Under the pieces are notes generated by a model. That model ran no database searches. It was given only the letters and a program-made list of their open reading frames with translations, and had not been told where the DNA came from. A stretch of 64,000 nucleotides of DNA from Clostridia bacterium (GTDB lineage Bacteria; Bacillota; Clostridia; Oscillospirales; CAG-272), in contig JAFQPM010000021.1 of NCBI GenBank assembly GCA_017411745.1, positions 1,349 through 65,348 of the forward strand. The letters are read 5' to 3'. Positions 40,531 to 59,641 of this stretch are shown here, piece by piece (position 1 is the stretch's first letter; each line of letters starts with the position of its first letter). A program made the position numbers and the translations under genes.

Positions 40531-40575
40531 CGTTTTACATTTTAAAAGTTAAATTCTAGATTATTTGTTTTCGTC

Positions 40576-41181: not shown

Positions 41182-41241
41182 AACTTTTCTCCTTTTTAGA
41201 GTTTAATATTTTCACGTGGTCTTACACCGCGTATCGTCGAC

Positions 41242-41270
41242 ATTATATCACAGCAATCGTCATTTGTCAA
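41242..41270 (-). promoter_or_regulatory. Consensus promoter of the pil operon
   Basis: TTGACA-17-TATAAT with TG extension. Confidence 0.75.
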
Positions 41271-41743
41271 CCCCCTTTACCGTTTTTCGTACAAAGTCCA
41301 CTATAAGCCCACCCAAATCAACACGCTTTTTGTGTTTTTCGAGGTCACATTGCACAATTTCAAGCCCTCGAATATGTGCAACTTTTCCATAATTCTTTGC
41401 GATCATCAGTAAAAACGCGTTTTTTGTTCACCTCCACGTACACATTATATGAAATATATGAAGATTAGCGACAAAACAGAAGCTCCGTACGTTAATTCTT
41501 TCCCCTGCCCAATAAAGCTGATGAATAAAATGAGGATTTTGGTTTATTTGACGAAAAACATTCTCCCCCAAAAATTACTAAAAACACATTTTTCCCCACC
41601 TCCAAAATCCTCTGCGGCATATCCTCGCATAGCCGATTTTTATCAAATTAAAGTTTTTAAAAGGATTTACAACATTCGTTCGATTTTTTGATTGGTCAAA
41701 ACGCCGAAAATAATCGTTTTTTGTTAGAAAAACAGATTAACTC

Positions 41744-41772
41744 TTGCATTTGCGGATTAATAATGCTATAAT
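41744..41772 (+). promoter_or_regulatory. Promoter of the RDD/ABC operon
   Basis: TTGCAT-17-TATAAT with TG extension. Confidence 0.6.
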
Positions 41773-41823
41773 AATTGTGTATGTGTGTAATGTTGTGTTT
41801 ATTTTGTGAAAGGACCCCGCAAT

Positions 41824-42585
41824 ATGGTAAACGATATCCAAAAAGCAAGTTTTTTTAAAAGACTGTCCGCTTTTATGCTTGACAGTATCATTCTGATATT
41901 GGTGGCAGTTGCGGTAGCAGTGCCGATATCTGCTATTCTCAACTATCCCGACACAGTAGAGGCATTTGAAACACACTATAAAAAATATGAAGAAAAGTAT
42001 GCGATTGATACAAACATGTCTGCCGACGAGTACGACAAATTAACTCCCGAGCAAAAGGAACGCTACGAGGAAGCAACCAAGGAATTGGCAAAAGACAAAG
42101 AAATAGTAAAGCTCTACACCACGCTTATGAACAAAACGATTTTGGTAGTGATCATTTCCCTTTTCTTTGCGTTTGTCATAACGGAATTGGCGATACCGCT
42201 GTTTTTCAAAAACGGTCAGACGCTTGGAAAGAAGATGATGTCGATCGGCGTTATGCGCGTGGACAGCGTCAGGATCTCAAGCTTCCAGTTGTTCGTTCGC
42301 TCTGTATTTGGCAAATTCTTGATGGAAACTATGATCCCCCTTCTCGTTATCATGCTGGAATTCTTCGGAGTGATGGCAGGCATGGGCGTTATAATCACCG
42401 TTTTGATCTTCATTATTCAGGTAGTACTCCTGATAGTAACGAAAAACAACTCCACAATACACGACTACTTTGCAGTTACCGTCGTCGTTGATATGAACGA
42501 CCAGACGATGTTCGACTCCCCCGAGGATCTTATAGAATACAAGAAAAAGCTACACGAGGAGGAAGTACGCAACGCGCCGTACTGA
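41824..42585 (+). CDS. RDD-family membrane protein
   Basis: ASFFKRLSAFMLD, GQTLGKK, IHDYFA. Confidence 0.85.
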   Translation: MVNDIQKASFFKRLSAFMLDSIILILVAVAVAVPISAILNYPDTVEAFETHYKKYEEKYAIDTNMSADEYDKLTPEQKERYEEATKELAKDKEIVKLYTTLMNKTILVVIISLFFAFVITELAIPLFFKNGQTLGKKMMSIGVMRVDSVRISSFQLFVRSVFGKFLMETMIPLLVIMLEFFGVMAGMGVIITVLIFIIQVVLLIVTKNNSTIHDYFAVTVVVDMNDQTMFDSPEDLIEYKKKLHEEEVRNAPY

Positions 42586-42673
42586 TACCTATTTCAACCC
42601 GTCTTAAAAAAATATTACATAAACTGCAGCTTGGCGCAAAACGCCGAGATTGCTTAAACTTTCAGGAGGTAAT

Positions 42674-43777
42674 ATGAAAGTCGAATTGCAAAACTTAACA
42701 AAAATCTTCCCCAGCCGTAACAAAAAGTCGGGTGGAGAGGTGACAGCGGTAAATGATTTTACCTTCACCATTCCCGACGGTAAGCTGGTCGGTCTGCTCG
42801 GTCCCTCCGGATGCGGAAAGAGTACCACTCTTTACATGATCAGCGGACTTCAGAAGCCCTCGTCGGGTAAGATCTTCTTCGGTGACGAGGACGTTACCGA
42901 GCTTTCCCCCGAGAACAGAGGAGTTGGTCTGGTCTTCCAGAACTATGCACTCTATCCTCACCTTACGGTTAAGCAAAACATTATGTTCCCTTTGCAGAAT
43001 CTCAGGGGTGCAGACAAGCTCTCAAAGCAGGAAATGCAGGAAAGAGCGCTTGAGGCGGCAAAGCTCGTTCAGATCGACGAGCTCATGGACCGTAAGCCCA
43101 GCGAGCTTTCGGGAGGTCAGCAGCAGAGAGTTGCTATCGCCCGCGCACTCGTTAAAATGCCTCGCGTTTTGCTTCTCGACGAGCCGCTTTCCAACCTCGA
43201 CGCACGTCTTCGTCTTCAGACCCGTGAGGAGATCAGAAGAATTCAGAAGGAAACGGGCATCACCACCGTTTTCGTTACGCACGACCAAGAGGAGGCTATG
43301 TCGATCTCCGATATGATCGTAGTTATGAAGCTCGGTGTGCTTCAGCAGATCGGTAAGCCTCAGGATATCTACGACGACCCCACAAATCTGTTCGTTGCCA
43401 AGTTCTTGGGAACACCTCCCATCAACGTTTTCAACGGAAAGGTTGAAAACGGCACGCTTTACATAGGAAGCGACGCTGTTCTTGAAGTTGGCGGTGTGTC
43501 CGATCAGCCCGTTTGGGTAGGTATTCGCCCCGAAGGCTTTACTCCCGACGATAACGGTGCTCTCGTTTGTAAGCTTAACAACGTAGAGGTTATGGGTAGA
43601 GACGTTAGCGTTGTTTCAACGCACGAGGCATCTGCTAACCCCATCGTACGCTCGATCGTCAATGCAGACAACAAGATCGACGTAACCGCAGAAAACATCA
43701 AGTATTCCTTAAAGCCTCATAAGGTGTTCATCTTCAACAAGGAAACCGAAGAAAGAATTTATTTTGAGGTGAAGTAA
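42674..43777 (+). CDS. CUT1 ABC transporter ATP-binding subunit (MalK-like)
   Basis: GPSGCGKST, LSGGQQQR, LLLDEPLSNLD. Confidence 0.95.
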   Translation: MKVELQNLTKIFPSRNKKSGGEVTAVNDFTFTIPDGKLVGLLGPSGCGKSTTLYMISGLQKPSSGKIFFGDEDVTELSPENRGVGLVFQNYALYPHLTVKQNIMFPLQNLRGADKLSKQEMQERALEAAKLVQIDELMDRKPSELSGGQQQRVAIARALVKMPRVLLLDEPLSNLDARLRLQTREEIRRIQKETGITTVFVTHDQEEAMSISDMIVVMKLGVLQQIGKPQDIYDDPTNLFVAKFLGTPPINVFNGKVENGTLYIGSDAVLEVGGVSDQPVWVGIRPEGFTPDDNGALVCKLNNVEVMGRDVSVVSTHEASANPIVRSIVNADNKIDVTAENIKYSLKPHKVFIFNKETEERIYFEVK

Positions 43778-45639
43778 TGGTAGATAGTAAGCATCAATGG
43801 AAGGCTTGGATATATTTGCTTCCCGCAATTATTCTGCTGATCATATTCACGCTATGGCCCATAATCAATACGGTCACCACAGCGTTTATATATAATGTAG
43901 AATACAAGCCTGTAATCATACAAGTTGAAGCCGTGGAAAACGCAGATGAAGAATATCTCTTCACGTACGTTGACTCGGTAGAGGGAAATAAGTACTATAT
44001 GAGCGCAGTCGTCGAGGAGGACGGCAGCGTTGACCTTGAGTACGTAAGCACTCCCGACGGCACAAACGGCAACTTTAAATACGACAATGACATCATGGCA
44101 TGGACCGTTACCGTTGGAGAAAAGCAGTATTTTATCGGTGCGACCGACGATTCCGACGCTTCCCTGTTTGAAGTCACAGAGGATAACGTTTCAAAGCTCG
44201 GCTCGTCCATATATCCCGCAAGTCTTTTCACAGAATCAGCCAATAAGCACGCCACAAGCGAGCTTGATCCCAAGGCGGGTTACAACTTTGGAATTTTCAA
44301 GGGTGTTTCCGAGGCAGTAAGATACGTTCTTGCATCCTCCGAGGAAGGCTACCTCAACACCACGGATTATCTTAACGAGTCCGCGATGCTCTGGCCTGAA
44401 AAATGCAAGGTCGGAGAAAAGAACGGCTTCAAGTTCTACTATGAGGACGAGGACTACAATTATCTCTACCTTAACACAGTAGTGAACGAGGAAGGCGAGG
44501 CTTCAATAGAGTATACGCTTGATCAGGGTGTCGGATTCTATTATAACAGCACTCACAAAGCGTGGGTCTGCCTCATTAACGATACCGAGTATTATCTCGG
44601 GCTTGACGGTATCAATAGAATAGGTGTCTATTCCCTTGCCGACATCGGCGCTGAAAACGCTCCTACACCCGCAGTAATGTATATGCACAGAGGAGAGGCG
44701 TCTGCAGCCGTTGAAATGACCAATCTCAGCGAGGATGATGCATACCGTATAGGTGCACATCGCGCGGCAGACGGAACTCAGACCTATATCACTACCGGTG
44801 CAGCCGTAGGTGGCGGTCTTATGCTGACCGAGGACTTTGTAAACGGTGAGGTCTTCTCCAAGTTTGGTATGAACAACTTTACCTACGTTCTTACCAGCAG
44901 AGGAAGTGACTTCATAGTCTGCTTGAAGAACACTCTCATTCTTACGGTCATCACAGTTCCGATCTCCACAATTCTTGCTCTCCTTATCGCAGTAGGACTT
45001 AACTCTATCAAGCCTCTGCAGAAGCTTTTGCAAACTATATTCTTCCTGCCCTACGTTACCAACTCCATCGCAATAGGAATGGTATTCGCGGCAATGTTCA
45101 ACATAGTCGGTATCAACTCCACGCAGGAGTCTGTAGGTATCATCAATAATATACTGGGACTATTCGGAGTAGAGAGGATCAACTGGATCAACTACGGCGC
45201 AGAGACCTGGGCAAGCTTCACAGCACTTATCGTCTACATCATATGGAATGCTCTGCCCTTCAAGATACTTATTCTTCTTGGCGGTCTGCAGAGTATCAAC
45301 AAACAGTACTACGACGCTGCAAAGATCGACAGCACTCCCAAGTGGCGCGTTCTTACCAGAATCACCGTTCCGTTGCTTTCTCCCATGCTCACGTACACTG
45401 TCATCACCAGCTTTATCGGCGGATTCAAGGAATACTCCAGCGTCGTCGGTATCTTCGGTGAGGATAAAGCCGTTGCGGGCGGTGCGAATATGAACACCAT
45501 AGTAGGACATATTCAGAACCACCTTACCATCACCCGTGACTACGGTCTTGCGGGCGCGGCAGCACTTATGCTGTTCGTAATAATCTTTATCGTAACCATG
45601 ATCAACTTGCGTATAAGCAAGAAGAGCACTCATTATTAA
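43777..45639 (+). CDS. CUT1 ABC permease with a ~320-aa extracellular insertion
   Basis: YLLPAII N-terminal TM; EAA loop YDAAKIDST; large beta-rich loop. Confidence 0.9.
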   Translation: MVDSKHQWKAWIYLLPAIILLIIFTLWPIINTVTTAFIYNVEYKPVIIQVEAVENADEEYLFTYVDSVEGNKYYMSAVVEEDGSVDLEYVSTPDGTNGNFKYDNDIMAWTVTVGEKQYFIGATDDSDASLFEVTEDNVSKLGSSIYPASLFTESANKHATSELDPKAGYNFGIFKGVSEAVRYVLASSEEGYLNTTDYLNESAMLWPEKCKVGEKNGFKFYYEDEDYNYLYLNTVVNEEGEASIEYTLDQGVGFYYNSTHKAWVCLINDTEYYLGLDGINRIGVYSLADIGAENAPTPAVMYMHRGEASAAVEMTNLSEDDAYRIGAHRAADGTQTYITTGAAVGGGLMLTEDFVNGEVFSKFGMNNFTYVLTSRGSDFIVCLKNTLILTVITVPISTILALLIAVGLNSIKPLQKLLQTIFFLPYVTNSIAIGMVFAAMFNIVGINSTQESVGIINNILGLFGVERINWINYGAETWASFTALIVYIIWNALPFKILILLGGLQSINKQYYDAAKIDSTPKWRVLTRITVPLLSPMLTYTVITSFIGGFKEYSSVVGIFGEDKAVAGGANMNTIVGHIQNHLTITRDYGLAGAAALMLFVIIFIVTMINLRISKKSTHY

Positions 45640-45658
45640 GAGAGGAGGCACGTCTAAT

Positions 45659-46711
45659 ATGGAAAAAATCGATAATAATTCTAACTCCTCCTTGAAGGTA
45701 ATGAAGGAAAGAGATATCCAAAAGGTTGCCTCCGGTCAGAAGGTCGCTAAGGTATTCGGTCAGATCCTCGTTTATACCTTCCTCGGTATCATGGCTCTGA
45801 TAGTGCTTTTCCCCTTCTACTTCATGATCATTTCATCACTGAAATCTCTTGAAGAATATAGATTGGCTGTTCCCACGCTGATCCCTCAGTCCTGGAAATT
45901 CCAAAACTATACCGACATACTTATCCCCTTTGACGTTGCAGAGGCTAACGGTTGGGTTGGATCTATCGTTTCTCCCGAAGCGGCAACCAACGATTTCGAC
46001 CTTTTCACACTTTTCAGAAATACGATGTTCGTAGGTATAGTTTCTACGATACTGTCGTTAGTCATCACCGTGCTTTCCGCATTTGCATTCGCTCGACTTA
46101 ACTTCAAGGGCAAGAACGCACTCTTTGCGGCGCTTCTCGGCACTATGATGATCCCCGGTGAACTTTTCACCATCACCAACTACGCAACCGTTATGACCAA
46201 GGGCGGATGGTTCCCAAGGTTCTTTAACGGGCTTGGAAATATGTTCGGTCTCTTTGGCCCCGATTTCCATATCCCGTTCGTCGATTCGAGCTTTGCTGCT
46301 CTGATCGTTCCCTTCCTTGTAAGTGTATTCTACATTTACCTTCTCAGACAGAACTTCTTGCAGATACCCAACGAGCTTTACCTCGCCGCTAAGGTAGACG
46401 GTACCAGCGACCTCAAGTATCTCTGGAAGGTTATGATCCCCCTTGCGCTCCCCACCATTATTTCTATCACGATACTCAAGATGATGGGCGCATGGAACTC
46501 TTACATGTGGCCCCGACTCGTTGCAAACGACGACGCTCACAGACTTATTACGAACGGTCTGAGAAACGCGTTTAACGACGTTTCAGGTAACACAGACTAC
46601 CCCCGTCAGATGGCGGCAGTCGCACTCGTTTCACTTCCGCTTTTCCTTGTATTTATCTTCTTCAGAAAATACATCATGAAGGGCGTAAGCCGAAGCGGCA
46701 TCAAAGGTTAA
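45659..46711 (+). CDS. CUT1 ABC permease
   Basis: LYLAAKVDG EAA loop, WNSYMWP. Confidence 0.92.
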   Translation: MEKIDNNSNSSLKVMKERDIQKVASGQKVAKVFGQILVYTFLGIMALIVLFPFYFMIISSLKSLEEYRLAVPTLIPQSWKFQNYTDILIPFDVAEANGWVGSIVSPEAATNDFDLFTLFRNTMFVGIVSTILSLVITVLSAFAFARLNFKGKNALFAALLGTMMIPGELFTITNYATVMTKGGWFPRFFNGLGNMFGLFGPDFHIPFVDSSFAALIVPFLVSVFYIYLLRQNFLQIPNELYLAAKVDGTSDLKYLWKVMIPLALPTIISITILKMMGAWNSYMWPRLVANDDAHRLITNGLRNAFNDVSGNTDYPRQMAAVALVSLPLFLVFIFFRKYIMKGVSRSGIKG

Positions 46712-46775
46712 TCGCTTTTTCAAAAAAGAAAGGGCTTAACACAAATATAATTTTATTATATGGAGGACAAAAACC

Positions 46776-48302
46776 ATGAAAATGAGAATTCTTGCGCTTT
46801 TAATGGCAGTATTTTGCTGTTTTGGTTGCTTCTCATTCGTAGCGTGCGATAACGGCGGTTCTTCCGAGACCACCACCGCAGCTCCCGAAAAAGAAGAAAC
46901 GACCACAGGCGAAGAAACCACCAAGGGTGAAGAAACCACCAACGATGTCGAAACCACCAAGGGTGAAGAAACTACCGCAGCTCCCGAAGTTCAGGACGAG
47001 GGTTACGACGGCAGTGCAGTAACCATCACCTTCTATCACACCATGGGTCAGAACCTGCGTGAAGTTCTCGATGCTTACATCGTAGAATTCAACAAGCTCT
47101 ATCCCAACATCACCATCGTTCACGAGCAGGTTGGCGGCTACGACGACGTTCGTGACCAGATCAGTACCGAGATCACCGTTGGTAACCAGCCCAACATCGC
47201 ATACTGCTATCCCGACCACGTTGCAGTCTACAACATCTCCAAGGCAGTTTATCCGCTTGACGCGCTCATCGACAACATGGCAGAGGTAACCCGCGCAGAC
47301 GGCACTACCGAGCGTATGGGTCTTACACAGAAGCAGATCAACGACTTTATCCCCGGCTACTACGCTGAGGGTAAGCAGTTCGGCGACGGCAAGATGTATA
47401 CACTTCCTCTCTCCAAGTCCACCGAGGTTCTTTACTACAACGCTACCTTCTTTGCAGAGCACGGTCTCACTCCTCCTACCACTTGGGAAGAGATGGAAGA
47501 GCTTTGCAATAAGATCAAAGAGATCGACCCCACCTGTATCCCTCTTGGATACGACAGCGAGGCTAACTGGTTCATCACTATGACCGAGCAGCTCGGTACT
47601 CCCTACACCAGCGCAACAGGCGAACACTTCCTCTTCAACACTCCCGAAAACAGAGCGTTTGTTAAGGAATTCAGAAGCTGGTTCGAGGCTGGCTACGTAA
47701 CCACTCAGGATATCTTCGGCGCGTACACCTCCGGACTCTTTGTAGAGCCCGATCCTTCCAAGCAGAGAAGCTATATGTCCATCGGATCCTCTGCGGGTGC
47801 TACCCACCAGCGTCCCGCAAAGGTTAACAACGAATATCCCTTTGAGGTTGGAATCACAAGCATTCCTCAGGCTAACCCCGATCAGCCCAAGGTTATTTCT
47901 CAGGGACCCTCGCTCTGTATCTTTGACAAGGCAAACAAGCAGGAGGTTTATGCTTCTTGGCTCTTTATGAAGTACCTCACCACTACCGTTGAGTTCCAGG
48001 CTGAATTCTCCATGGAATCGGGTTACGTTCCCGTTCTTAAGTCCGTTGCTAAGAACGAGATGTATGCTGCTTGGCTCGATAAGGCTAACGGTGGCGATAA
48101 CATCGCAGCACTTTCCGCAAAGGTTTGTCTTGATCAGGCAGACGCATACTACACCTCCCCCGCATTCAACGGCTCCTCCGTTGCTCGTGACGAGGTTGGA
48201 AAGCTCATCAAGGATTGCTTCTCCGCAGAAACCGACGACGTTGATGCTATGATCAACAAGGCATTCGAGGATGCGGTAGAAAAGTGCAAGTACCTCTCTT
48301 AA
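46776..48302 (+). CDS. ABC solute-binding lipoprotein
   Basis: Lipobox FVAC, Thr/Glu linker, ITFYH..FNKLYPNI, LPLSKSTEVLYYN. Confidence 0.9.
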   Translation: MKMRILALLMAVFCCFGCFSFVACDNGGSSETTTAAPEKEETTTGEETTKGEETTNDVETTKGEETTAAPEVQDEGYDGSAVTITFYHTMGQNLREVLDAYIVEFNKLYPNITIVHEQVGGYDDVRDQISTEITVGNQPNIAYCYPDHVAVYNISKAVYPLDALIDNMAEVTRADGTTERMGLTQKQINDFIPGYYAEGKQFGDGKMYTLPLSKSTEVLYYNATFFAEHGLTPPTTWEEMEELCNKIKEIDPTCIPLGYDSEANWFITMTEQLGTPYTSATGEHFLFNTPENRAFVKEFRSWFEAGYVTTQDIFGAYTSGLFVEPDPSKQRSYMSIGSSAGATHQRPAKVNNEYPFEVGITSIPQANPDQPKVISQGPSLCIFDKANKQEVYASWLFMKYLTTTVEFQAEFSMESGYVPVLKSVAKNEMYAAWLDKANGGDNIAALSAKVCLDQADAYYTSPAFNGSSVARDEVGKLIKDCFSAETDDVDAMINKAFEDAVEKCKYLS

Positions 48303-48332
48303 TTCTGAAATTATTTACAGGACAAATTAATA

Positions 48333-49805
48333 ATGAAGAAGATCATTAGCAATTTGCTTGTGGTTGCATTGCTGATAGGCTCCCTTCTCGGCTGCCTGTC
48401 AGCGTGCGACGCTTCAGGCAATACAAACGAAACAACCGGCACCGAGGATCCGACCACCGAATCCACAGCGCAAAGCGGAGACAACTCCACGGAGGAAGAT
48501 CAAAGCACTACCGAGAGTGAAAGTGAAAGCGAGAGCGAGAGCGAAAGTGAAACTACACCTCCCGACGTTCACGTTGACTACGCATCTGAGGTAAAGCTGG
48601 ATATGAACTCTGATACTCTTAAACAAGAGGTAACGGTAAAAGCGTTCATAGACGGTGACACCACTCACTTCAACGTGCCTACCTCACTTATTGAGACAGG
48701 CGTTATCAAAGCGAGATATCTCGCTATCAATACCCCCGAGTCCACGGGTAAGATTGAGGAGTGGGGCAAAACGGCAGCCGCATTTACCAAGGAAAAGCTT
48801 TCTTCTGCTACGTCTATCATTATCGAGTCGGACACCGAAACGCTCAACGCGGATTCCACGGGAGACAGATATATGCTCTGGATCTGGTACAAGACTGCCG
48901 AAAGTGACGAGTATCGCAATCTCAATATCGAGATCCTGCAGAATGGATTGGCGATCGCCTCCAACTCCTCAAACAACCGATACGGCGAAACCTGTATGGC
49001 GGCAATCAATCAGGCGAGAGCCGAAAAGCTGTGTGTTTATTCGGGAGTAAAGGATCCCAACTTCTATTATGGCGAATCGATAGAGCTCACTCTCAAGGAG
49101 CTTCGTTGCAACATCGAAAGCTATAACGGAATGAAGGTTGCCTTCAACGGAATCGTAACTCAGGATCACGACAACGCAGTTTACGTCGAAAGCTACGACG
49201 AGGAGACTGACGTTTGGTACGGAATGTATATTTACTACGGCTTCAATATGAATGGCACCGCCCTTGAGATCCTTTCCGTAGGAAACGAAGTAAGGATCGT
49301 TGGCACCGTGTCCTACTATGAAACTGGCAATACTTATCAGGTCTCGGGACTTTCTTACCGTATGATGAAGCCCGACGATCCCTCTAACATCCAGAAAATA
49401 AGCGATGGTCACGAGCCCGTATATCTTCCCACTTCCCCCGAGCGTTATGCAAACGGTAAGGTTGACGTAACACTCACGGACAGCGAAGACAACGCAACCA
49501 CGACCACCTACGATTACGCCGCCCTCGCGATATACTCCTCCATCTCTATGGAAGGACTTTACGTAAAGAGCGCGTATACTACCACCAATCCGGCAAGTGA
49601 CGATTTCGGCGCTATGACTCTTATCTGCGAAGCAAACGGTGTGACTATTCAGATCCGCACCACTGTCTTCCGAGATGAGAACGGCGAACTCATCACTACC
49701 GACCACTATGAAGGCAAGACCATTGACGTAAAAGGAATCATTGAATATTTCAGCGGTGACTATCAGATCAAGGTCTTCAATCAGAACGATATTATTATCA
49801 AGTAA
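48333..49805 (+). CDS. Thermonuclease (SNase) lipoprotein with C-terminal OB folds
   Basis: Lipobox LSAC; IDGDT, RYLAINTPES, DSTGDRY, NIEILQNGLA. Confidence 0.85.
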   Translation: MKKIISNLLVVALLIGSLLGCLSACDASGNTNETTGTEDPTTESTAQSGDNSTEEDQSTTESESESESESESETTPPDVHVDYASEVKLDMNSDTLKQEVTVKAFIDGDTTHFNVPTSLIETGVIKARYLAINTPESTGKIEEWGKTAAAFTKEKLSSATSIIIESDTETLNADSTGDRYMLWIWYKTAESDEYRNLNIEILQNGLAIASNSSNNRYGETCMAAINQARAEKLCVYSGVKDPNFYYGESIELTLKELRCNIESYNGMKVAFNGIVTQDHDNAVYVESYDEETDVWYGMYIYYGFNMNGTALEILSVGNEVRIVGTVSYYETGNTYQVSGLSYRMMKPDDPSNIQKISDGHEPVYLPTSPERYANGKVDVTLTDSEDNATTTTYDYAALAIYSSISMEGLYVKSAYTTTNPASDDFGAMTLICEANGVTIQIRTTVFRDENGELITTDHYEGKTIDVKGIIEYFSGDYQIKVFNQNDIIIK

Positions 49806-49838
49806 TAATATAAAATAAAAACTCTAAAAGGAGACGTT

Positions 49839-52703: not shown

Positions 52704-52744
52704 TTTTACATAACTTAACAGTTTGTTCGGATAAAACCGAGTAA

Positions 52745-52788
52745 AACAAGCCATCCGCGGCAAATTGCCGCGGATGGCTTGTTTTTTT
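52745..52788 (+). terminator. Rho-independent terminator
   Basis: AAACAAGCCATCCGCGGCAA-A-TTGCCGCGGATGGCTTGTTTTTTT. Confidence 0.85.
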
Positions 52789-52860
52789 GACAAAAGTATT
52801 GAAAAAAAACAATTATTGTGGTATAATGACTCGTGAAATTTAACTTCGAAAGGTCAAAAT

Positions 52861-54114
52861 ATGAAATCGTACAATAAGATCCTGTCGCTTTTGCTGGCAT
52901 TAGCGATTTTTGTCACCGCTTTTACAAGCTGTGATCTGTTTTCTGATTCGGGCAGCTTGTCGGGTGAGACCACTACCGAAAGCTCAAGCGACAACTCTAC
53001 CACCTTCCCTGCCGAGGACACTTCGGACGAATACATATCCACCGAGCAACCGACAGAAAGCATCACAAACGAAAACGTATCGACGCAGGAAACCGAAACG
53101 ACAGAAGCTGGCAGCTCCGAAACAGAGCCGCCGGAAACAACGGAATCCTCCGAAATCGGATCAACCGAAGCAACGGAGGCTGACAGTTCCGAAACCGAGT
53201 CAACCGAAACCGAGCGAGGCGAGCTTGAAAAGCGGCCTCTTGAGGAGATCATTGAGGCGGTCAACTCTCCTTCGGATTATGCCCCTGCGGGAAGCTACGA
53301 GGAGGCGTTGGATCGCTCTCAAAACGGCGAGCTTTCGGGTTATCCGTTCGTTCCCGACCAAGCACCCATTATCTCGGAGTACCAACCTACAAAAGACGGA
53401 AAACTCATCAAAAACAACGATTCATATTACCTTGATCATAATACGTACGTTGTAATCGATGCCTACGGTCGCGAGGTCTTTCGTATCTATCGCGGAGGCG
53501 CGTATATAACGCTTGAGGAGGTTGCCGCATACGTCTACGCTTTCGGCACCTACCCCGCTAATCACACCGCGAAAAAGGCCACAAGTGTTTCAGGCAACAT
53601 CTGGGGGATATATCTGCGCTCCAATCATTCAAGATTCAGCGGCAACACCTCAAAATATCCCTACGAGCCCGAGCTTCCGCGTATCAGTGGCTGTGGCGGA
53701 GATCTTCAATACTGGGAGATGGACATCGGAACAACGGGCACAGATTGCGATCCGGGTTACCCTTCCACGATATATAACAACGGTACTAAGATCACTCGCG
53801 GCGCCGCAAGGATCGTTTATACGTGGAATGACCTCAACAATAACGGCATAAACGACGGTAACGACGTGGTTTTCGTCTTCTACACCTACAACCACTACAA
53901 TGATTTCCAAGAATATCTGAATTATTACGGCGGCTGGGGAGAAATGTTCGGAAACATTACGGGAGGCGGTAAGATCTCGAGCAAGACCGACTACAATCCC
54001 ACCGAGTACGTGCCCGTATATACGGGGAGCCTTAAGGACGGTATCGCCAAGACCGAATATATTATGTTCGCTTGGGTAGACCGCCGCGCATTCGAGCTTC
54101 TCTTGAACGCATAA
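52861..54114 (+). CDS. Barnase/T1-like ribonuclease lipoprotein
   Basis: Lipobox FTSC; EVAAYV..FGTYPAN, YWEMDI, RGAARIVY, FYTYNHYNDF; own promoter TTGAAA-17-TATAAT at 52799-52827. Confidence 0.75.
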   Translation: MKSYNKILSLLLALAIFVTAFTSCDLFSDSGSLSGETTTESSSDNSTTFPAEDTSDEYISTEQPTESITNENVSTQETETTEAGSSETEPPETTESSEIGSTEATEADSSETESTETERGELEKRPLEEIIEAVNSPSDYAPAGSYEEALDRSQNGELSGYPFVPDQAPIISEYQPTKDGKLIKNNDSYYLDHNTYVVIDAYGREVFRIYRGGAYITLEEVAAYVYAFGTYPANHTAKKATSVSGNIWGIYLRSNHSRFSGNTSKYPYEPELPRISGCGGDLQYWEMDIGTTGTDCDPGYPSTIYNNGTKITRGAARIVYTWNDLNNNGINDGNDVVFVFYTYNHYNDFQEYLNYYGGWGEMFGNITGGGKISSKTDYNPTEYVPVYTGSLKDGIAKTEYIMFAWVDRRAFELLLNA

Positions 54115-54126
54115 CCGCATAACATT

Positions 54127-54163
54127 AAAAATACCGACGAGTTGTGTTCGTCGGTATTTTTTT
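54127..54163. terminator. Bidirectional terminator
   Basis: AAAAATACCGACGA..TCGTCGGTATTTTT. Confidence 0.8.
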
Positions 54164-54164
54164 A

Positions 54165-54887
54165 TCATAAGTTCAAATCTTTCAGTTTTTCATAAACCGC
54201 AAAGTCAGTCTTATGCGGAGTGATCGGAGTAACCGATATCCAACCGTTACAGATCGCGTTGATATCGCTGTTGGGATTTACCTCGTCGGACGTCACGGGC
54301 GCGCCTACCTGAATATACATATCCTCCCCTCTGCACTCAAAAGCATCGGAAAAATACATGCCTCCCTGATGAGTGACCTTGAATTCACTGCTTCCAAGCG
54401 GGATATTGACGTTATAGAGCCCGTTCAGCTCAAAAAGACGGTTTTTGCAGATATATTCCCAAACCGCATCCAAGCGTTCTACCGAGTCGTCAAAGCTTTG
54501 CGGATCGGTAGAGAGCGCCAATCCCTTGACACCGAGCCTTGAGCCCTCCAAAATTGCCGCAACCGTACCCGAATAAGATATGTCGTGTCCAACGTTGAAT
54601 CCACGGTTAATTCCGGATATAACAAGGTCATATTCCCTGCCAAGTCCTAAAACTCCAAATCTCACACAATCTGCGGGAGTAGAATCCATAGCATAAGCCT
54701 CGATATCGCCGCCGATCAACACCTTTTTGATCTCAACGGCATTTCGTATCTCTATTCCCTGACTCTTGGCACTCTGCTCGACCTTAGGTGCGACTATGAC
54801 TACCTCGCCAAGCTTTTGCGCCCACCTTACAAGACGCGGTAAAACGGGCGAGAATATGCCGTCATCGTTTGTAATAAGTATTCTCAT
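54165..54887 (-). CDS. surE: 5'/3'-nucleotidase SurE
   Basis: ILITNDDG, TPADCV, ISGINRGFN, YSGTVAA. Confidence 0.92.
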   Translation of the reverse strand: MRILITNDDGIFSPVLPRLVRWAQKLGEVVIVAPKVEQSAKSQGIEIRNAVEIKKVLIGGDIEAYAMDSTPADCVRFGVLGLGREYDLVISGINRGFNVGHDISYSGTVAAILEGSRLGVKGLALSTDPQSFDDSVERLDAVWEYICKNRLFELNGLYNVNIPLGSSEFKVTHQGGMYFSDAFECRGEDMYIQVGAPVTSDEVNPNSDINAICNGWISVTPITPHKTDFAVYEKLKDLNL

Positions 54888-55864
54888 AGCCACCCCGTAT
54901 TGTTTGCCTTATATTCGCCAAGTCGCTTATCAGCCTCTTTCAAAAGCTTCTTTGCCTCATCAATGCTGTACACAGTAGCGCCCGCCGCACAGGCATGTCC
55001 TCCGCCGTGATAGCGCTCTGCAAGCTCGCTTATCGTAACGAATCTCGAGCGCAAACGGACACGGATCGAACCGTCATCACTTTCAATGAAAGCGATCCAT
55101 ATAAGACTACCCTTGATAGAGTCCATATACGACACCGCCGTGCACGCTTGCTCAAACGTCAGCCCAAATTTTTCCTGCATCGCACGGTCTACGTACATAT
55201 ACGCGACCTTGTTTTTTGTGAGTTTTATTTTTCCGTAAACGTAGCTCTTAAACTTCAGCTCCTCAAACGGATCAAGATAAAGATTGGCGTAAATAATGTC
55301 GGTATCTATGCCAACGTCAAGCATAGTTCCCGCATAGCGCATAGTATCTCCCGAAACGGATCTGAATCTGAAGCGTCCCGAATCGGTCACCATTCCCGTA
55401 TAAATATACGTCGCCGCCTCTTTGTTGATCTTCAACTCGTCATGGAACGTATCGTAAAACTTCGCGATCATTTCGCAAGAAGACGACCTCTCCTCCTCTA
55501 CCCACATATAATCTCCGTAAGGAGCGATGTCGATATGATGGTCGATCTTGACCAGCTCCTTGCAAAGAGAGTACTTAGGATTGGATATACGCTCCACCGT
55601 GGCAGTGTCTATAACGATACCGAGAGCATCCTTGTAAAAATCATCGTCTCTCGGCTCATCCTCGTCGCCAAGAAACGCCATATAATCGGAATAGTCGTTA
55701 TTAAGCAAGCATACTTCCTTTTCGGGATAGGTAATTCTCAATATCTCGCGCAACCCCTTGGTCGAGCCTACGGCGTCTCCATCAGGGCGCTTATGGCGAA
55801 AAATGATTATACGATCATATTCCTTGATCTTCTCAAGTATGACCCTCATCTTCTCTAAACTCAT
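54884..55864 (-). CDS. nrnA: DHH/DHHA1 oligoribonuclease/pAp phosphatase
   Basis: HKRPDGDA, IDHH, TDSGRF, GGGHACAAG. Confidence 0.88.
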   Translation of the reverse strand: MSLEKMRVILEKIKEYDRIIIFRHKRPDGDAVGSTKGLREILRITYPEKEVCLLNNDYSDYMAFLGDEDEPRDDDFYKDALGIVIDTATVERISNPKYSLCKELVKIDHHIDIAPYGDYMWVEEERSSSCEMIAKFYDTFHDELKINKEAATYIYTGMVTDSGRFRFRSVSGDTMRYAGTMLDVGIDTDIIYANLYLDPFEELKFKSYVYGKIKLTKNKVAYMYVDRAMQEKFGLTFEQACTAVSYMDSIKGSLIWIAFIESDDGSIRVRLRSRFVTISELAERYHGGGHACAAGATVYSIDEAKKLLKEADKRLGEYKANNTGWL

Positions 55865-56805
55865 ATTCTTCCCTCCGTAACGTCCTTAAGATCGGACAGC
55901 ATCTGCATAGCTTCTTCGCGATCCTTCAAGGTAGCACCGCTTGCCTTTGCGTGACCGCCTCCGCCGTATTTTTTAGCTATCGGATTGATATTGTGAACAC
56001 TTGAGCGTATTTCGGTCAAAACGCCCTCCTCGGCTTCGGTAAAGTTGACCCATACCTCTACTCCGCGGATCTCACCCATCGTGTTGACCATTCCGCGCGA
56101 AAGCGTAAAGCTGTCAGCCTCATACCCTTCCGCTTCCTCTCGTGTAGTGTATATGTACGCGACCTTGCCGCCCTCGCAGATCTGAATTTTCAATACAAAC
56201 TGCGCGCGCAGCTTTATAAAGCGGAAGTCGTCCGTATAAAGATTTCTGTATATATCCTCGGTGCTGAATTTCTGCTCCATAAGGAACGCCGCCAGCCTGA
56301 ACGTCTGCGACGACGTAGAATCGTAGCGGAATCTGCCCGAATCGGTGATCATACCCGTGTAAAGCGACTTTGCCGCAAGAGGACTTAATTTCCAACCGCA
56401 CTCCATAGCAAGCGCCGTGATCAAGCCACAGCAGCTTTCGTACGAGGTGTCGGTAACCTCAATCTCTGCGATCTCCTCACAGAAAATATGATGGTCAATA
56501 CGCACTACCCTATCAGCCATAGTATATCTTTCGTCGCTTATCAAAGCCTTTGCAGAGGTGTCAAGAATGATCGCCAGAGCGCCGCTGTAATCGGCATCTG
56601 ACACGTCGTCCATTATAGAATCCTCCATAAATCCAAAGCGCTCGGACGCGTCACCGACGCACAATACGCGTTTTTGAGGATAGTTATCTTTAATTAGATT
56701 CTTAAGACCTATCTGGCTGCCCAAAGCATCACCGTCGGGCTTTTTGTGACGGTGTATTATGATAGTATCGTACGATTCGATACAGTTTAATATCTGTTCA
56801 AACAT
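55861..56805 (-). CDS. nrnA: DHH/DHHA1 oligoribonuclease/pAp phosphatase (second copy)
   Basis: HKKPDGDA, IDHH, TDSGRF, GGGHAKASG. Confidence 0.88.
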   Translation of the reverse strand: MFEQILNCIESYDTIIIHRHKKPDGDALGSQIGLKNLIKDNYPQKRVLCVGDASERFGFMEDSIMDDVSDADYSGALAIILDTSAKALISDERYTMADRVVRIDHHIFCEEIAEIEVTDTSYESCCGLITALAMECGWKLSPLAAKSLYTGMITDSGRFRYDSTSSQTFRLAAFLMEQKFSTEDIYRNLYTDDFRFIKLRAQFVLKIQICEGGKVAYIYTTREEAEGYEADSFTLSRGMVNTMGEIRGVEVWVNFTEAEEGVLTEIRSSVHNINPIAKKYGGGGHAKASGATLKDREEAMQMLSDLKDVTEGRI

Positions 56806-56817
56806 ATTTTTCTCCTA

Positions 56818-58017
56818 TTATTCAAAGTATCCTCGATATTTCACCTGAAGCGTGCTGTTCGGGAACATATACTGATACAGATCGATAAAATAGTCGTCGG
56901 TCATACTTGCGATATAATCTATTACGATCTGATTAGGCTCACACGCCTCATAAGGAGTTGAGCGCTTGTAGTGCGCGGAATTCACGTAATCAATGTGATG
57001 CGTGAAGATCGGCGAGGATCTGCGCTCGTTTTTGAGATCATCAAGCAACTGGTCGTATATCTCACTCATCATAGGACGCACCGTCGCACCAAGATTAGCC
57101 ATAGGTGCGGCATTGTTGTATATCATCTGATAATTTTCACGCTTTGACTTCTGCAAAGCCTTAAAATGCTTGCTATCAAGCTTGATATACGGCTTTCCGT
57201 AGCTGTTTTCAATAACGTTGACCACAAGATTATTTATAATCTCCGCATTTATCGACCCTATGTCCTCGTTAAAGAACATACTCTCGTGCGCTATATTGGC
57301 GCGTATAGCGTCCTGGCGATCCTTGCCAAGATACGCAATTATATCGGCAAGACGAACGACGGCAGCCTCCATAGTAGACGGCATCAGCGAGGCGTGGAAG
57401 GAGCTATCCGTATAGCAGCGCTCGATCATTTTATCGAATTCTGCAAAGCTGTTTACGGGAACCGGATGATACTCCTCACATTCTATCTCACCGTTGTGGC
57501 TGGCTATACCGTTCAAGGTCTGCAAGCTGATATTGTACGGAAATATCCCATCCAATACACGAACCGATTGCAGATTGTGGGCGAATATTCGTCCCGTGTG
57601 CGCCAAGCTTAATTCATTCAAATAAGCCTCCCCCGTATGAGCAAACGGCGGGTGACCGATATCATGACCCAAGGCGATAGCTTCTATAAGATCGACGTTG
57701 AGATGCAAAGCCGCGCCTATCGTTCTCGATATTCGTGAAACTAGCTGAACGTGCAGACTTCTGCGTGTTATATCGTCATTTTTACAAAGCGAAAAGACCT
57801 GGGTCTTGTCCGTATATCGATTATAGTACGGGCAGTGCAGAATTTTATCAATATCATGCACAAACGTCGGGCGCCAAACGGTCGCGTTGTCCTTCGCGAT
57901 ATTTTTTCGCCTGATTACAAGATCGTCCTTAAAGGAAACGTCGTTATATATACCCGTTTTCTTCGCCTCGGTTATCTGATTTGTTATCTCCTGTGACAAA
58001 GCTTCGTATTTTGGCAT
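56818..58017 (-). CDS. HD-domain dNTP triphosphohydrolase (dGTPase-like)
   Basis: DKTQVF, TRRSLH, GHDIGHPPFAHTGE, IASMTDDY. Confidence 0.88.
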   Translation of the reverse strand: MPKYEALSQEITNQITEAKKTGIYNDVSFKDDLVIRRKNIAKDNATVWRPTFVHDIDKILHCPYYNRYTDKTQVFSLCKNDDITRRSLHVQLVSRISRTIGAALHLNVDLIEAIALGHDIGHPPFAHTGEAYLNELSLAHTGRIFAHNLQSVRVLDGIFPYNISLQTLNGIASHNGEIECEEYHPVPVNSFAEFDKMIERCYTDSSFHASLMPSTMEAAVVRLADIIAYLGKDRQDAIRANIAHESMFFNEDIGSINAEIINNLVVNVIENSYGKPYIKLDSKHFKALQKSKRENYQMIYNNAAPMANLGATVRPMMSEIYDQLLDDLKNERRSSPIFTHHIDYVNSAHYKRSTPYEACEPNQIVIDYIASMTDDYFIDLYQYMFPNSTLQVKYRGYFE

Positions 58018-58038
58018 TATGCCTCCTATATATCACTG

Positions 58039-58689
58039 TTATTTCCAAATAAAATTATAATTTATCGACTCTCCGCCATCTACGAGTATGCTCTGCCCCG
58101 TACAGAAGCCGTTGACAGCCGTCAGAAAATATGCCCACTCGGCGATCTCCTCGGGTGTCGCCCATCTTTTCAGCGGAGTTTCTTCCATTATCTCCGCCCA
58201 AAGCTCAGGATCGTTAATAACACACTCGTTAAGCGGCGTAAGAACTCCCCCGGGGTCAAGACTGTTACAGGTCGCTCCGTATTTTGCGACCCTCATAGCC
58301 ACGTTTTTTGTGTAAGCAAGAACTCCGCCCTTGCTCGCGCAGTATTCGGGAAATTCCGCGCCCGTGTGCGCGCTCGCAGAGCCGATGCTGAGTATTGACT
58401 TGATACCCTCGCGAACACCGTATTTTTCGGTAATATGGATCAAAGCCTTGAGATTTATATCGATATCAGCCTCATTCTGTGTGCCGGCATTGTTGATAAG
58501 TATCTCGACGTCGTCAACCTCGGGCAGATTATCGTAATCGCGCACGTCGCAAACGTAATGGGTATATTTCTCACACGATATCGTGCTCTCCTGTCTATCT
58601 ATGCCAATGACCTCGTGCCCTCTATCCAAGAATATCTCAGATATCGCCTTGCCGATTCCCTGCGAAGTGCCCGTAATCAAAACCTTCAT
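58039..58689 (-). CDS. SDR-family oxidoreductase
   Basis: TGTSQGIG, NNAG, YCASK. Confidence 0.9.
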   Translation of the reverse strand: MKVLITGTSQGIGKAISEIFLDRGHEVIGIDRQESTISCEKYTHYVCDVRDYDNLPEVDDVEILINNAGTQNEADIDINLKALIHITEKYGVREGIKSILSIGSASAHTGAEFPEYCASKGGVLAYTKNVAMRVAKYGATCNSLDPGGVLTPLNECVINDPELWAEIMEETPLKRWATPEEIAEWAYFLTAVNGFCTGQSILVDGGESINYNFIWK

Positions 58690-58690
58690 T

Positions 58691-59437
58691 TCAGCTTTTT
58701 CCCCCTTCAATATACTCCAAATATTCGTATCCGACGCGGTTCGCCCTCCACTTTTTGACCAAACGGTATCCAATAGGTGAGAAGGCTATCTCCATTATCA
58801 ACTCCGCAACAGCACCCGTGAGCGCACAGGTCGCACACTGGAGCACCGTCCAATGAAATCCATCCCAGAAGATCGGTGCGAAGCCGACAAAAACGATTAT
58901 AGAAAAAATAAAATTATCCAAGAACTGACCGATGAAGGTCGAAATGTAGGACTGCATAGCATAAGCCAGCTTGCCGTCGGGATTTTTTCTGAACGCTTTG
59001 CCGATAGTCCAATTCAGCATATTATTAATTACCGCGGAGGACAAAAACGCGATAGTGCTTCCAAGCAGAATGAACCACGTTCCGCCGAAAATAGAGTTGA
59101 ACGCGCTGTAATCATCGGCATTTGACGGAATAACGCTCGCCACAAAAAATATAAGGCAGGTCAACAGATTTATCATAGCCGCGAGTATCGAGATCTTGTT
59201 TGACGCCTTCGGGCCGAAATGCTTGGTGATGATATCCATACACATAAACGACAGCCACGAGATCAGAATACCGCCGTCAAGCGCGATCCAATCGAGCTGT
59301 AAAAGCGTTTTGTTCGCAAGCAGATTCATGCAAACAACGCTCACAACAAAAAGAGTCACGACCGTCGCGGGAATGCACCGCAGCAGGATCGCCGTCTCCT
59401 CTTTTTCCTTACGTATCCAATTCTTTATCTTAATCAT
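58691..59437 (-). CDS. VUT (YhhQ/QPTR-like) membrane transporter
   Basis: NLLANK..DGG..MDIITKHFG, ISTFIGQFLDNFIF. Confidence 0.8.
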   Translation of the reverse strand: MIKIKNWIRKEKEETAILLRCIPATVVTLFVVSVVCMNLLANKTLLQLDWIALDGGILISWLSFMCMDIITKHFGPKASNKISILAAMINLLTCLIFFVASVIPSNADDYSAFNSIFGGTWFILLGSTIAFLSSAVINNMLNWTIGKAFRKNPDGKLAYAMQSYISTFIGQFLDNFIFSIIVFVGFAPIFWDGFHWTVLQCATCALTGAVAELIMEIAFSPIGYRLVKKWRANRVGYEYLEYIEGGKS

Positions 59438-59641
59438 TATAAATAAACTCTCCCACGAAGAGATTTGATTAGTGCAAACTATTACATTTTATTATACCAT
59501 ATAATCAGACTTTTTTCAACCCAAAATTGTTCAAACTCCGCCTTTTTCAAATAAAATTTGTTTTTTTACCCTTTTTCTCTTGCCCCCAAAGCGCTTGTAT
59601 GGTATAATTAACCTTGTAAACACTCTATACGGAGGCATAAT

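Follow-up and report, generated by a model that had tools for sequence, protein, structure and literature searches.

Why does an ABC importer of the sugar type share an operon with a thermonuclease-like lipoprotein, and what would such an importer carry? The question is raised by a locus in a 64,000-nt stretch of a Clostridia bacterium genome (GCA_017411745.1, contig JAFQPM010000021.1), the whole of which is called the window here. In the window's genome (G000; 1.84-Mb, 97% complete), a first-pass annotation had proposed a complete locus for the use of extracellular nucleic acids at 41824..59437, and all the genes that it named there were recovered with Pfam and NCBIfam. Our analysis indicates that the best explanation is a locus with which a Gram-positive gut anaerobe scavenges extracellular nucleic acids, and we give this reading, with its full mechanism, a probability of roughly 0.6. 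Its parts differ in strength. Breakdown of extracellular nucleic acid by the locus, followed by uptake of what is released, is highly probable; for di- or oligonucleotides as the specific cargo, which we infer, the chances are about even.

Conservation of the importer-nuclease association

We scanned one genome per species for relatives of the importer's solute-binding protein (SBP). They were present in at least 591 species, and the counts below refer to the best 80 loci (50-75% identical), all from metagenome-assembled genomes (MAGs) of gut or rumen Clostridia. The results showed that the SNase gene lies directly 3' of the SBP gene in 79 of the 80 loci, and the contig of the 80th ends at that point. 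The other importer genes were also retained (ATPase in 70, MalF in 74, MalG in 77), as was an RDD-family gene 5' of the ATPase gene in 65. Homologues of the 954-aa lipoprotein that follows the SNase protein were detected in 52 loci by blastp on called open reading frames (ORFs) and in 38 by tblastn (at least 25% coverage). The pair of NrnA-like genes was present in 36 loci, or 33 of the 53 with at least 8 kb of downstream sequence, and SurE in 29, adjoining the NrnA pair in 28 of the 36 pair-bearing loci. The order NrnA2, NrnA1, (SurE) was always kept, both where the block is convergent with the ABC operon (29 loci) and where it is co-directional (7), indicating that its closeness has been maintained through rearrangements. 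Thymidine kinase was found in 8/80 loci, and DeoB and DeoC in 5/80 each.

Within the genus, an orthologue at 57% identity or more was found in 11 of 24 other species. We fetched twelve same-genus loci, in 11 of which SNase adjoins SBP; the twelfth encodes a fusion protein. The whole array to SurE, NrnA, NrnA was present in six. In two same-genus species, DeoB, DeoC and thymidine kinase follow the array instead (L017 was scanned; L019/L090 was examined by tblastn in L090).

The association is also seen in more distant forms of the system. One of them is a paralogous importer, its SBP about 30% identical, in L023-L030 (eight loci) and L140, and also in L044 and L091; G000 itself has no such second system. 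In six of the eight loci the paralogous SBP is followed by a two-module OB lipoprotein of 476-529 aa (tRNA_anti-codon 3e-9 to 7e-6), each module of which is 24% identical to residues 168-377 of the 954-aa protein (E 6e-5 and 1e-4). A His_Phos_1 phosphatase gene lies 5' of this importer in three loci, and in L030 the genes for DeoC, PNP (nucleoside phosphorylase) and DeoB lie 3' of it. In L044 the two paralogous importers flank the NrnA pair, and L091 holds both importers, the RNase, thymidine kinase, NrnA2, NrnA1 and SurE in one array. Among 400 genomes sampled evenly from the phylum, the SBP family was found in two others only, both with the link. One (G367) encodes ATPase, MalF, MalG, SBP and an OB lipoprotein. 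In the other (G396), which belongs to another family, an SBP 34% identical is followed by a canonical SNase lipoprotein (PF00565 8.4e-20), and a convergent gene encodes a 290-aa protein with a weak DHHA1 match (1.8e-4); within the order of G396 the SBP family was seen in that genome alone (1/7 genomes). Finally, a 1477-aa ORF in G021 (L022:4154-8587, C12) joins an SBP domain, 57% identical to that of the window, to the OB/aBig_2 region of the 954-aa lipoprotein, with an unassigned N-terminal part of 470 aa. This fusion gene has no adjacent permease genes, and purF-like and purD genes lie a few kb downstream.

Taken together, the SNase gene after SBP in 79/80 loci, the NrnA pair in 36/80 and the recurrence of the link at 30% and 34% SBP identity argue that the grouping is not due to chance. 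The window genome points the same way: its SNase, barnase-like, SurE and SBP genes are each single-copy, its two NrnA genes are the only ones of their type, and all lie within about 11 kb, which makes a chance grouping unlikely.

The synteny survey across Clostridia MAGs that the first-pass annotation had called for thus upheld the co-location of importer and SNase (79/80 species, 11/12 same-genus loci) and, in 36/80 loci, of the NrnA pair. It did not extend to the VUT gene, for which no match was found in the 80 loci, or to the SDR gene, which was found in 2/80 as a weak match (25-26% identity), and these two are probably not part of the system for that reason. With HD in 11/80 loci, barnase-like RNase in 8/80 and neither VUT nor SDR conserved, calling the locus complete was an overstatement; the HD gene is loosely associated with it.

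We then analyzed the layout of the locus (Table 1). Seven co-oriented genes, from the RDD gene to that of the 954-aa lipoprotein (41806-52703), are separated by gaps of 0-64 nt. They include a contiguous CUT1 set of MalK-type ATPase, two BPD_transp_1 permeases and SBP; the ATPase stop codon overlaps the start of the MalF-like permease gene, and the SNase gene begins 30 bp past the SBP gene in the same operon. The RDD protein, with four hydrophobic segments, had been left unmentioned, and the proposed start of the locus, 41824, is an internal ATG of its gene. The importer was correctly described as co-oriented with SNase, OB-fold and barnase-like lipoproteins. The first two of these lie in its operon; the barnase-like gene is a transcription unit of its own behind a hairpin and a promoter-like site. 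The hairpin stem has 11 G-C pairs, and a similar hairpin sequence occurs in L011 and L096. On the minus strand, the SurE, NrnA, NrnA, HD, SDR and Vut_1 genes form the tightly packed convergent set that had been described. The SDR ORF as listed has a TTG start and overlaps the VUT gene by 83 nt (58689-58773); an ATG 28 codons further in (MKVLITG...) is a likelier start and leaves the usual overlap of a few bases.

Table 1. Genes, signals and domains of the locus, in window positions
Feature	Position	Strand	Evidence and remarks
RDD-family membrane protein	41806-42585	+	PF06271 3.7e-13; first gene of operon
ABC ATPase, MalK/UgpC type	42650-43777	+	PF00005 8.9e-38, OB_MalK 1.8e-5
MalF/UgpA-like permease	43777-45639	+	BPD_transp_1 1.8e-15, residues 398-615
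Unnamed domain, about 130 aa, in permease insert	44269-44661	+	BLASTP
MalG/UgpE-like permease	45659-46711	+	BPD_transp_1 8.2e-14
Lipoprotein SBP, UgpB/dinucleotide-binder branch of CUT1	46776-48302	+	SBP_bac_8 5e-36
SNase (thermonuclease-fold) lipoprotein with C-terminal OB-like half	48333-49805	+	PF00565 35.9 bits vs cut-off 21
954-aa multidomain lipoprotein	49839-52703	+	aBig_2 8.8e-10 (38.7 bits); tRNA_anti-codon 6.4e-6 (26.5 bits vs 27)
Hairpin, perfect 20-bp stem	52743-52785	terminator-like on both strands	flanked by A and T runs; ends ABC operon
Promoter-like site TTGAAA-17-TATAAT	52799-52827		3' of hairpin, 5' of barnase-like gene
Barnase-family RNase-like lipoprotein, 417 aa	52861-54114	+	PF00545 18.9 bits vs 24; hhalign 99.0%
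SurE 5'/3'-nucleotidase, cytoplasmic	54165-54893	-	TIGR00087 148.7 bits vs cut-off 135.1
NrnA-like nanoRNase paralogue 1	54884-55864	-	DHH 6.5e-15, DHHA1 2.7e-14; NF053633 4e-71
NrnA-like nanoRNase paralogue 2	55861-56805	-	DHH + DHHA1; 37% identical to paralogue 1
HD dGTPase-like phosphohydrolase	56818-58017	-	HD 3.5e-10, HD_assoc 2.2e-5; NF002327 3.6e-55, below cut-off
SDR oxidoreductase	58039-58773	-	adh_short_C2 1.8e-25
Vut_1/YhhQ-like transporter	58691-59437	-	PF02592 1.5e-27; TIGR00697 50.7 bits vs 50.95
Promoter-like site	59519-59491	-	5' of Vut_1 gene

Proteins of the importer, the cell surface and the cytoplasm

The SBP was searched against PDB as a single sequence and as the profile of its 19-member family. 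The best matches were the 7c0f-7c1b group (1.2e-20 and 5e-27, respectively; the profile value is that of 7c0x/7c0f, whence 7c0x group below), followed in the profile search by the glycerol-3-phosphate (G3P) binder 9lff (2e-23) and E. coli UgpB (7.6e-21). Sugar binders scored 4e-14 or weaker, and the UgpB-type glycerophosphocholine (GPC) binders of M. tuberculosis 4e-10. Chandravanshi et al. 2021 reportedly described an ABC dinucleotide binder of T. thermophilus, probably the protein of the PDB 7C0F series. A match of the SBP to the NCBIfam 'P68 surface lipoprotein' model (3.3e-6) was rejected; it covers the signal peptide and low-complexity linker only.

According to PMC12718374, the T. thermophilus binder of U3G (UpG), the M. 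tuberculosis GPC binder and UgpB form one CUT1 branch, in which two Tyr and two Ser residues that hold the phosphate are strictly conserved, and these are not conserved in glucose binders. We aligned the SBP with E. coli UgpB. The results showed that Y122, S215, Y417, R471 and G377 of the SBP align with Y42, S121, Y323, R374 and G284 of UgpB and are invariant in both tiers of the SBP family. S335 is Ser in four orthologue rows (the window and three others) and Ala in three paralogue rows, and would be the fourth phosphate ligand if the numbering of PMC12718374 is shifted by a constant offset. The glycerol clamp of UgpB (W169/W172) and its Glu66 are replaced by A263, F266 and P146, and the SBP reached 71 bits with the UgpB model NF008211, against a cut-off of 411. 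With the phosphate-holding residues kept and the glycerol clamp replaced, the SBP looks made for a phosphate ester other than G3P, a result that is suggestive, not decisive.

The best NCBIfam matches of the other importer subunits also lie in the Ugp group, each under the cut-off of its model: UgpC for the ATPase (7e-104), and UgpE (9.9e-25) ahead of MalG (7.4e-22) for the MalG-like permease. Proteins in the same 90%-identity clusters are named 'sugar ABC transporter permease', 'extracellular solute-binding protein' and 'hypothetical protein' by NCBI, and the mislabelling as a sugar transporter that had been predicted for this importer is indeed seen in these names.

Between its first and second membrane segments, the MalF-like permease contains about 350 aa of inserted extracytoplasmic sequence (43870-44940, residues ~31-387), bounded by hydrophobic segments at 12-30 and 388-406. 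The insert was found only in the window's subclade (G000, G017, G007, G015, G018, G009); other orthologues are 312-356 aa long. By BLASTP, residues 165-294 of the permease and 492-619 of the 954-aa lipoprotein are 29% identical in an alignment of 133 aa (E 2e-8). A permease with a copy of its partner lipoprotein's domain in an outer loop is unusual. No Pfam family matched the shared domain at E up to 1. Among 1.84 billion proteins it had 1484 cluster representatives (E up to 1e-3), often with 2-7 copies per protein in proteins of 600-2500 aa. Among 16 such proteins scanned, OB folds were found in 6, aBig_2 in 6 and Endonuclease_1 in 2. This unnamed domain, common to the permease loop and lipoproteins, is a candidate for a new nucleic-acid-handling module.

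All four extracytoplasmic proteins (SBP, SNase, 954-aa and barnase-like) carry an N-terminal lipobox-like signal followed by a Thr/Glu/Ser-rich linker. With a crude regular expression, such signals were found in 53/69 SBP, 58/65 SNase, 57/66 OB and 13/14 RNase homologues, and in 0/33 SurE, 0/34 NrnA1, 0/29 NrnA2 and 0/12 HD homologues.

The SNase domain scored 38.9 bits in a genome-wide scan. We aligned the window protein with 63 homologues, and the results showed that D107, D109, T110, R128, E136 and R179 are invariant (64/64) and that T134, at the classical T41 position, is kept in 63/64. We take the six invariant residues to be the classical D19, D21, T22, R35, E43 and R87. The R87 position was placed by eye: pairwise phmmer puts it at L182, and the alignment with a canonical homologue (L141) puts it at R179, which falls in the Y-x-R-L-L-A motif of the canonical SNase homologue (PF00565 8.4e-20). 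The domain is probably active, with an atypical metal ligand (see below). Residues 245-490 of the same protein have a weak tRNA_anti_2 match (0.0045).

The 954-aa protein consists of a double-OB module (~168-377), an aBig_2 domain, the unnamed domain (~480-640) and an OB fold (697-759). The OB-fold lipoprotein of the first-pass annotation is thus present, with a borderline Pfam match (26.5 vs 27 bits). Two similar Cys/His-rich motifs of the C-x-C-G ... H ... C-x2-C-G type flank the OB fold within residues ~638-806 (51750-52260). They match no confident Pfam family and may be zinc-binding knuckles.

To examine the barnase-like protein, we aligned it with all 14 homologues found and compared this 15-member family with 20 bona fide PF00545 proteins. 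The latter were taken from 27 matches in a 300-genome sample of the phylum, from which two matches without a locus, four with unprocessed loci and one protein with an internal duplication were dropped. The results of hhalign showed a probability of 99.0% and an E of 2.8e-18 over 110 columns. E286, R313, R317 and H345 are invariant in 15/15 and fall on the conserved Glu/Arg/Arg/His columns of PF00545, which presumably are the catalytic E73, R83, R87 and H102 of barnase. The barnase-like core spans roughly residues 206-351 and is interrupted by two loop insertions; the protein extends beyond it at both the N- and the C-terminal end. PF00545 itself was matched by 13/15 family members (best 2.7e-4), none of them shown above the cut-off. 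A PDB profile search with the RNase family gave nothing at E up to 1, and the single-sequence search a chance match only; in the ESM Atlas, just 10-17% of the members of the nearest clusters carried PF00545, which is a lead only. As judged from profile comparison, the barnase homology is solid and the 417-aa protein contains a barnase-family domain; by the Pfam model alone, its match is below the cut-off. Enzymes of the SNase and barnase families leave 3'-phosphorylated mono-, di- and oligonucleotides with a 5'-OH.

Of the cytoplasmic proteins, both NrnA-like proteins have DHH and DHHA1 domains with the DHH and GGGH motifs. They scored 239.5 and 250.1 bits with the NrnA equivalog model NF053633, against a cut-off of 350, and are best regarded, by these scores, as family members and not proven equivalogs. 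With the SNase residues and the barnase tetrad conserved, the NrnA motifs in place and SurE above its cut-off, the enzymes look competent.

Competing readings and known systems

These results suggest the following mechanism. Membrane-tethered lipoproteins on long Thr/Glu/Ser linkers would capture DNA and RNA; the capturing parts would be the 954-aa protein with its several OB folds and, in the SNase protein, the OB-like half. The Ca-type SNase domain and, where present, the barnase-type RNase would cut the polymers into 3'-phosphorylated fragments, and the UgpB-branch SBP would hand small phosphorylated fragments to the CUT1-type importer. The likeliest cargo would be di- or short oligonucleotides, perhaps also 3'-nucleotides. 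In the cytoplasm, the two NrnA proteins would split these fragments and SurE would remove phosphates, a part that the histidine phosphatase may play in the paralogous system. The nucleosides could then enter the deoD/deoB/deoC and tdk routes, genes of which flank the locus in several relatives. A phosphorylated di- or oligonucleotide cargo is favoured mainly because cytoplasmic nanoRNases and nucleotidases are present and surface phosphatases are absent from the core set. Surface capture and the division of labour between the two NrnA proteins are parts that we infer. As for the pathway resembling a polysaccharide utilization locus (PUL) that had been proposed for DNA and RNA, the importer-nuclease link and the phosphate-ester branch of the SBP speak for it, and the oligonucleotide cargo is its conjectural part.

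Several points weigh against this mechanism. The ligand, nuclease and transport roles of all members are predictions from sequence. For the SBP, the scores of 97.7 bits (7c0x group), 85.8 (9lff) and 77.3 (E. coli UgpB) differ by a margin of only about 12-20 bits, and the alignment with the 7c0x group covers only part of the protein, about residues 201-435 of 508. The 7C0F-7C1B entries, putatively the Thermus dinucleotide binder, are labelled 'sugar ABC transporter' or sugar-binding protein. A hydroxyl of glycerol or of a sugar may still be bound by D147, the neighbour of the lost Glu66 position, so that glycerophosphodiesters are possible ligands. In the SNase protein, the D40 position (residue 133) is Asn in 57/64 and Asp in 7/64, and the OB-fold Pfam matches in window proteins lie at or below the cut-off. 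A search of the 97%-complete genome G000 for barstar (PF01337, E up to 0.1) gave no match, and its control detected the family in 3/14 genomes; a barstar partner is not universal for the barnase family. The two NrnA proteins, as the only NrnA-type enzymes of the genome, probably also do housekeeping in RNA turnover, and 20 of the 53 loci with sufficient downstream sequence have no NrnA pair close by. The 80 loci are kin, and inherited synteny inflates their counts. The barnase-like gene is present in just 8/80 species loci and 6/12 same-genus loci. No regulator, riboswitch or conserved leader was found at the locus. Finally, G000 has pyrB (337 bits) and pyrF/OMP decarboxylase (208.9 bits) above their cut-offs, and purF-like (167 bits) and purH-like (280.5 bits) genes below theirs. 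The test comprised these four markers only, all on contig C7. With them retained, uptake is not forced by auxotrophy, and the suggested link to loss of de novo purine and pyrimidine synthesis fails in this genome.

The alternative that survives best, an unlikely one, is that nucleic acids are scavenged by an importer of nucleosides or free mononucleotides made outside the cell, with no import of oligonucleotides and with the NrnA pair as a housekeeping neighbour. It can appeal to these two being the sole NrnA-type genes of the genome, to 5'-nucleotidase genes near the locus in L014, L046 and L110, and to published interpretations: Wasmund et al. inferred 'probable nucleoside or nucleobase transporters' in similar Izemoplasmatales loci (PMC8289736), and single-nucleotide import was proposed for a mycoplasma operon (PMC4045577). 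Plain nucleosides fit poorly, as the residues that hold phosphate in the UgpB branch are retained in the SBP, and the cytoplasmic phosphatases SurE and His_Phos_1 would be idle if nucleosides entered; moreover, the NrnA pair stays close through inversion (29 vs 7 loci) and lies between two importers in L044. Known nucleoside ABC importers use BMP-family binding proteins, and this counts against a nucleoside cargo as well. P48 appears to be such a case (PMC12892991).

A second alternative, which we consider improbable, is that the importer takes another organophosphate, such as glycerophosphodiesters or head-group fragments of teichoic acids or phospholipids, and that the cluster is a phosphate-acquisition unit whose nucleases merely release phosphate esters. 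UgpC, UgpE and UgpB as best NCBIfam matches, the phosphate-binding residues common to UgpB and the GPC binder (PMC12718374), and D147 as a possible stand-in for Glu66 would fit this. Against it, the Trp clamp is lost, no GDPD or alkaline phosphatase was found among the 14 locus proteins or in the scanned neighbourhoods of relatives, the M. tuberculosis GPC binders are far weaker matches than the 7c0x group (4e-10 vs 5e-27), and each of the three diverged forms of the system has nucleic-acid proteins as its conserved partners.

Still less probable is a non-nutritional role of the surface nucleases, in biofilm DNA remodelling, escape from host DNA traps or as an RNase weapon, with a transporter that recycles by-products or is separate. 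Secreted barnase-type RNases and SNases have such roles elsewhere; here the barnase-like gene is a separate and patchy transcription unit (8/80), and G000 is not a nucleotide auxotroph by the four markers. A non-nutritional role is at odds with the SNase gene 30 bp past SBP within the operon, an arrangement in 79/80 loci, with the catabolic deo/tdk genes and cytoplasmic nucleotidases that flank the locus, and with the existence of the SBP-OB fusion. An ordinary sugar importer beside unrelated nuclease genes by coincidence is strongly disfavoured: the public annotation and all transporter Pfam families are those of sugar importers, but 79/80 loci have the SBP-SNase pair, other lineages show the association again at 30-34% SBP identity, neither a glycoside hydrolase nor a sugar kinase lies nearby, and the SBP is nearer to phosphate-ester binders than to any sugar binder.

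We next compared the locus with known systems. The mycoplasma operons (M. bovis MBOVPG45_0307-0311, M. hyopneumoniae mhp379, M. gallisepticum MslA) resemble it in combining polynucleotide-binding and SNase-type lipoproteins with a CUT1-type transporter, a likeness of architecture only, drawn from descriptions rather than sequences. The M. bovis operon encodes an 'oligosaccharide ABC transporter', a nuclease lipoprotein and P81/MslA and has been discussed as a nucleotide transporter operon (PMC4045577), and a role in supplying the cell with precursors of nucleic acids has been proposed for the mycoplasma operon (PMC4045577, PMC12115388). The window locus departs from these operons in several ways: its SBP is a dedicated protein of the UgpB branch, multi-OB lipoproteins take the place of MslA/P81, a barnase-like RNase is encoded, and NrnA, NrnA and SurE genes lie next to it. 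Its host is a walled member of gut Clostridia that keeps pyr genes and pur-like genes.

The 'DNA-degradation loci' of Ca. Izemoplasmatales likewise co-locate extracellular nucleases, phosphohydrolases and an ABC transporter, and Wasmund et al. 2021 drew the PUL analogy and noted that relatives of the Izemoplasmatales SBP also occur near nucleases (PMC8289736). They differ in belonging to wall-less Bacilli of marine sediment, in encoding phosphate transporters together with a nuclease protein of 1,049 aa that has a lamin-tail domain, and in a transporter that was read as a nucleoside or nucleobase importer (PMC8289736); this comparison was made by description only. The ddbABCDEF loci of gut Bacteroidales (Sharan et al. 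2025), shown experimentally and the only experimentally defined gut system, have surface lipoprotein nucleases, a dedicated transporter, inner breakdown and an explicit PUL-like logic (PMC12478041). That text makes no mention of ABC transporters, Firmicutes, Bacillota or Clostridia. The window locus would be its Gram-positive equivalent, made of unrelated components, and the likeness is functional only; neither a glycoside hydrolase family, as the first-pass annotation had stated, nor a SusC/SusD-like TonB-dependent transporter pair was found among the 14 locus proteins by Pfam scan.

For single components, the T. thermophilus U3G binder resembles the SBP as a CUT1 protein that was deposited as a 'sugar-binding protein', binds uridylyl-3'-5'-guanosine and has the same phosphate-holding Tyr/Ser set (PMC12718374); the main aligned stretch between the SBP and the 7c0x group is just about 235 residues. 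E. coli UgpBAEC has the same transporter family and subunit set, but the window locus is without a UgpQ-type phosphodiesterase and its partners are nucleases. The NrnA pair recalls M. bovis Mbov_0328/0327, adjacent DHH/DHHA1 paralogues with nanoRNase activity that are needed for nucleotide recycling and tied to the outside nucleotide supply (PMC7373297); by this comparison of descriptions, the pair here differs in being followed by SurE and lying beside an importer.

The logic of the system is thus already published for other lineages (PMC8289736, PMC12478041, PMC4045577), and no description of this system in Clostridia was found in the literature searched. The locus differs from the published systems in the UgpB-branch SBP, the modular OB lipoproteins, the barnase-type lipoprotein, the NrnA/NrnA/SurE block, the breadth (at least 591 species) and a host that keeps pyrimidine and partial purine markers. 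More tentatively, and at somewhat less than even odds, the locus may represent an unrecognised large CUT1 importer family for short 3'-phosphorylated di- or oligonucleotides, with the cargo made by tethered surface nucleases and captured by OB folds and the new domain, which in one subclade would have been grafted into the outer loop of the permease itself. If so, no family of oligonucleotide importers outside Mollicutes would precede it, and the DNA-utilization loci of Bacteroidales would have a Gram-positive counterpart. SBP relatives occur in at least 591 species genomes, mostly of uncultured gut and rumen Clostridia, for which in that case dietary, host and microbial nucleic acid would be a routine source of C, N and P despite their own nucleotide synthesis. 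Nucleic acids are an abundant and little-studied gut nutrient. A Gram-positive equivalent based on an ABC importer would show which Clostridia compete for them, would put right a 'sugar transporter' annotation that is systematically wrong in hundreds of species, and would offer a candidate for oligonucleotide import, an activity poorly documented in bacteria. DNA or RNA digests are suggested as a growth supplement for relatives that are still uncultured.

Surroundings of the locus

The intergenic region between the pilin and RDD genes (41182-41805) is unusually long, at about 625 nt; it holds an 80-codon ORF without a family and is conserved in the closest relative only (78% over 296 nt). A 649-nt stretch 5' of the RDD gene and two further intergenic regions are conserved in nearest relatives only, and thus give no sign of a shared leader. 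An Rfam search at E up to 1 over 40500-60500 returned hairpin look-alikes only and no riboswitch. Among sequencing runs, two from RNA libraries in a single study and a third of unknown kind held 7-23% of the sampled words, and short contigs from the runs cover parts of the ATPase, SBP and 954-aa genes, some of them mismatch-free. Since RNA libraries may contain DNA, these contigs were not counted as expression.

Divergent from the locus lies a minus-strand operon (34213-41181) that resembles those for type IV pili or type II secretion systems. It encodes a PilB ATPase, PilC, a prepilin peptidase, a 410-aa protein, three small pilin-like ORFs and an N_methyl pilin, and has a perfect-consensus promoter-like site at 41270-41242. 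We considered this operon as part of the system and rejected it, its adjacency being seen in 0/100 other loci. Downstream of the pilus genes is a 1311-aa ORF (30241-34176, minus strand) without a Pfam match at E up to 1e-4, the neighbours of which have Big_3 and Listeria-Bacteroides repeat domains. Positions 1-28000 of the window have a low GC content (0.32-0.40, against 0.44-0.51 further on) and carry genes for two serine recombinases, a tyrosine integrase, an OLD-like ATPase, a helicase, a NUDIX protein and C5 and N6/N4 DNA methylases, together with ICEA-like genes. This part of the window looks like a mobile or defence island.

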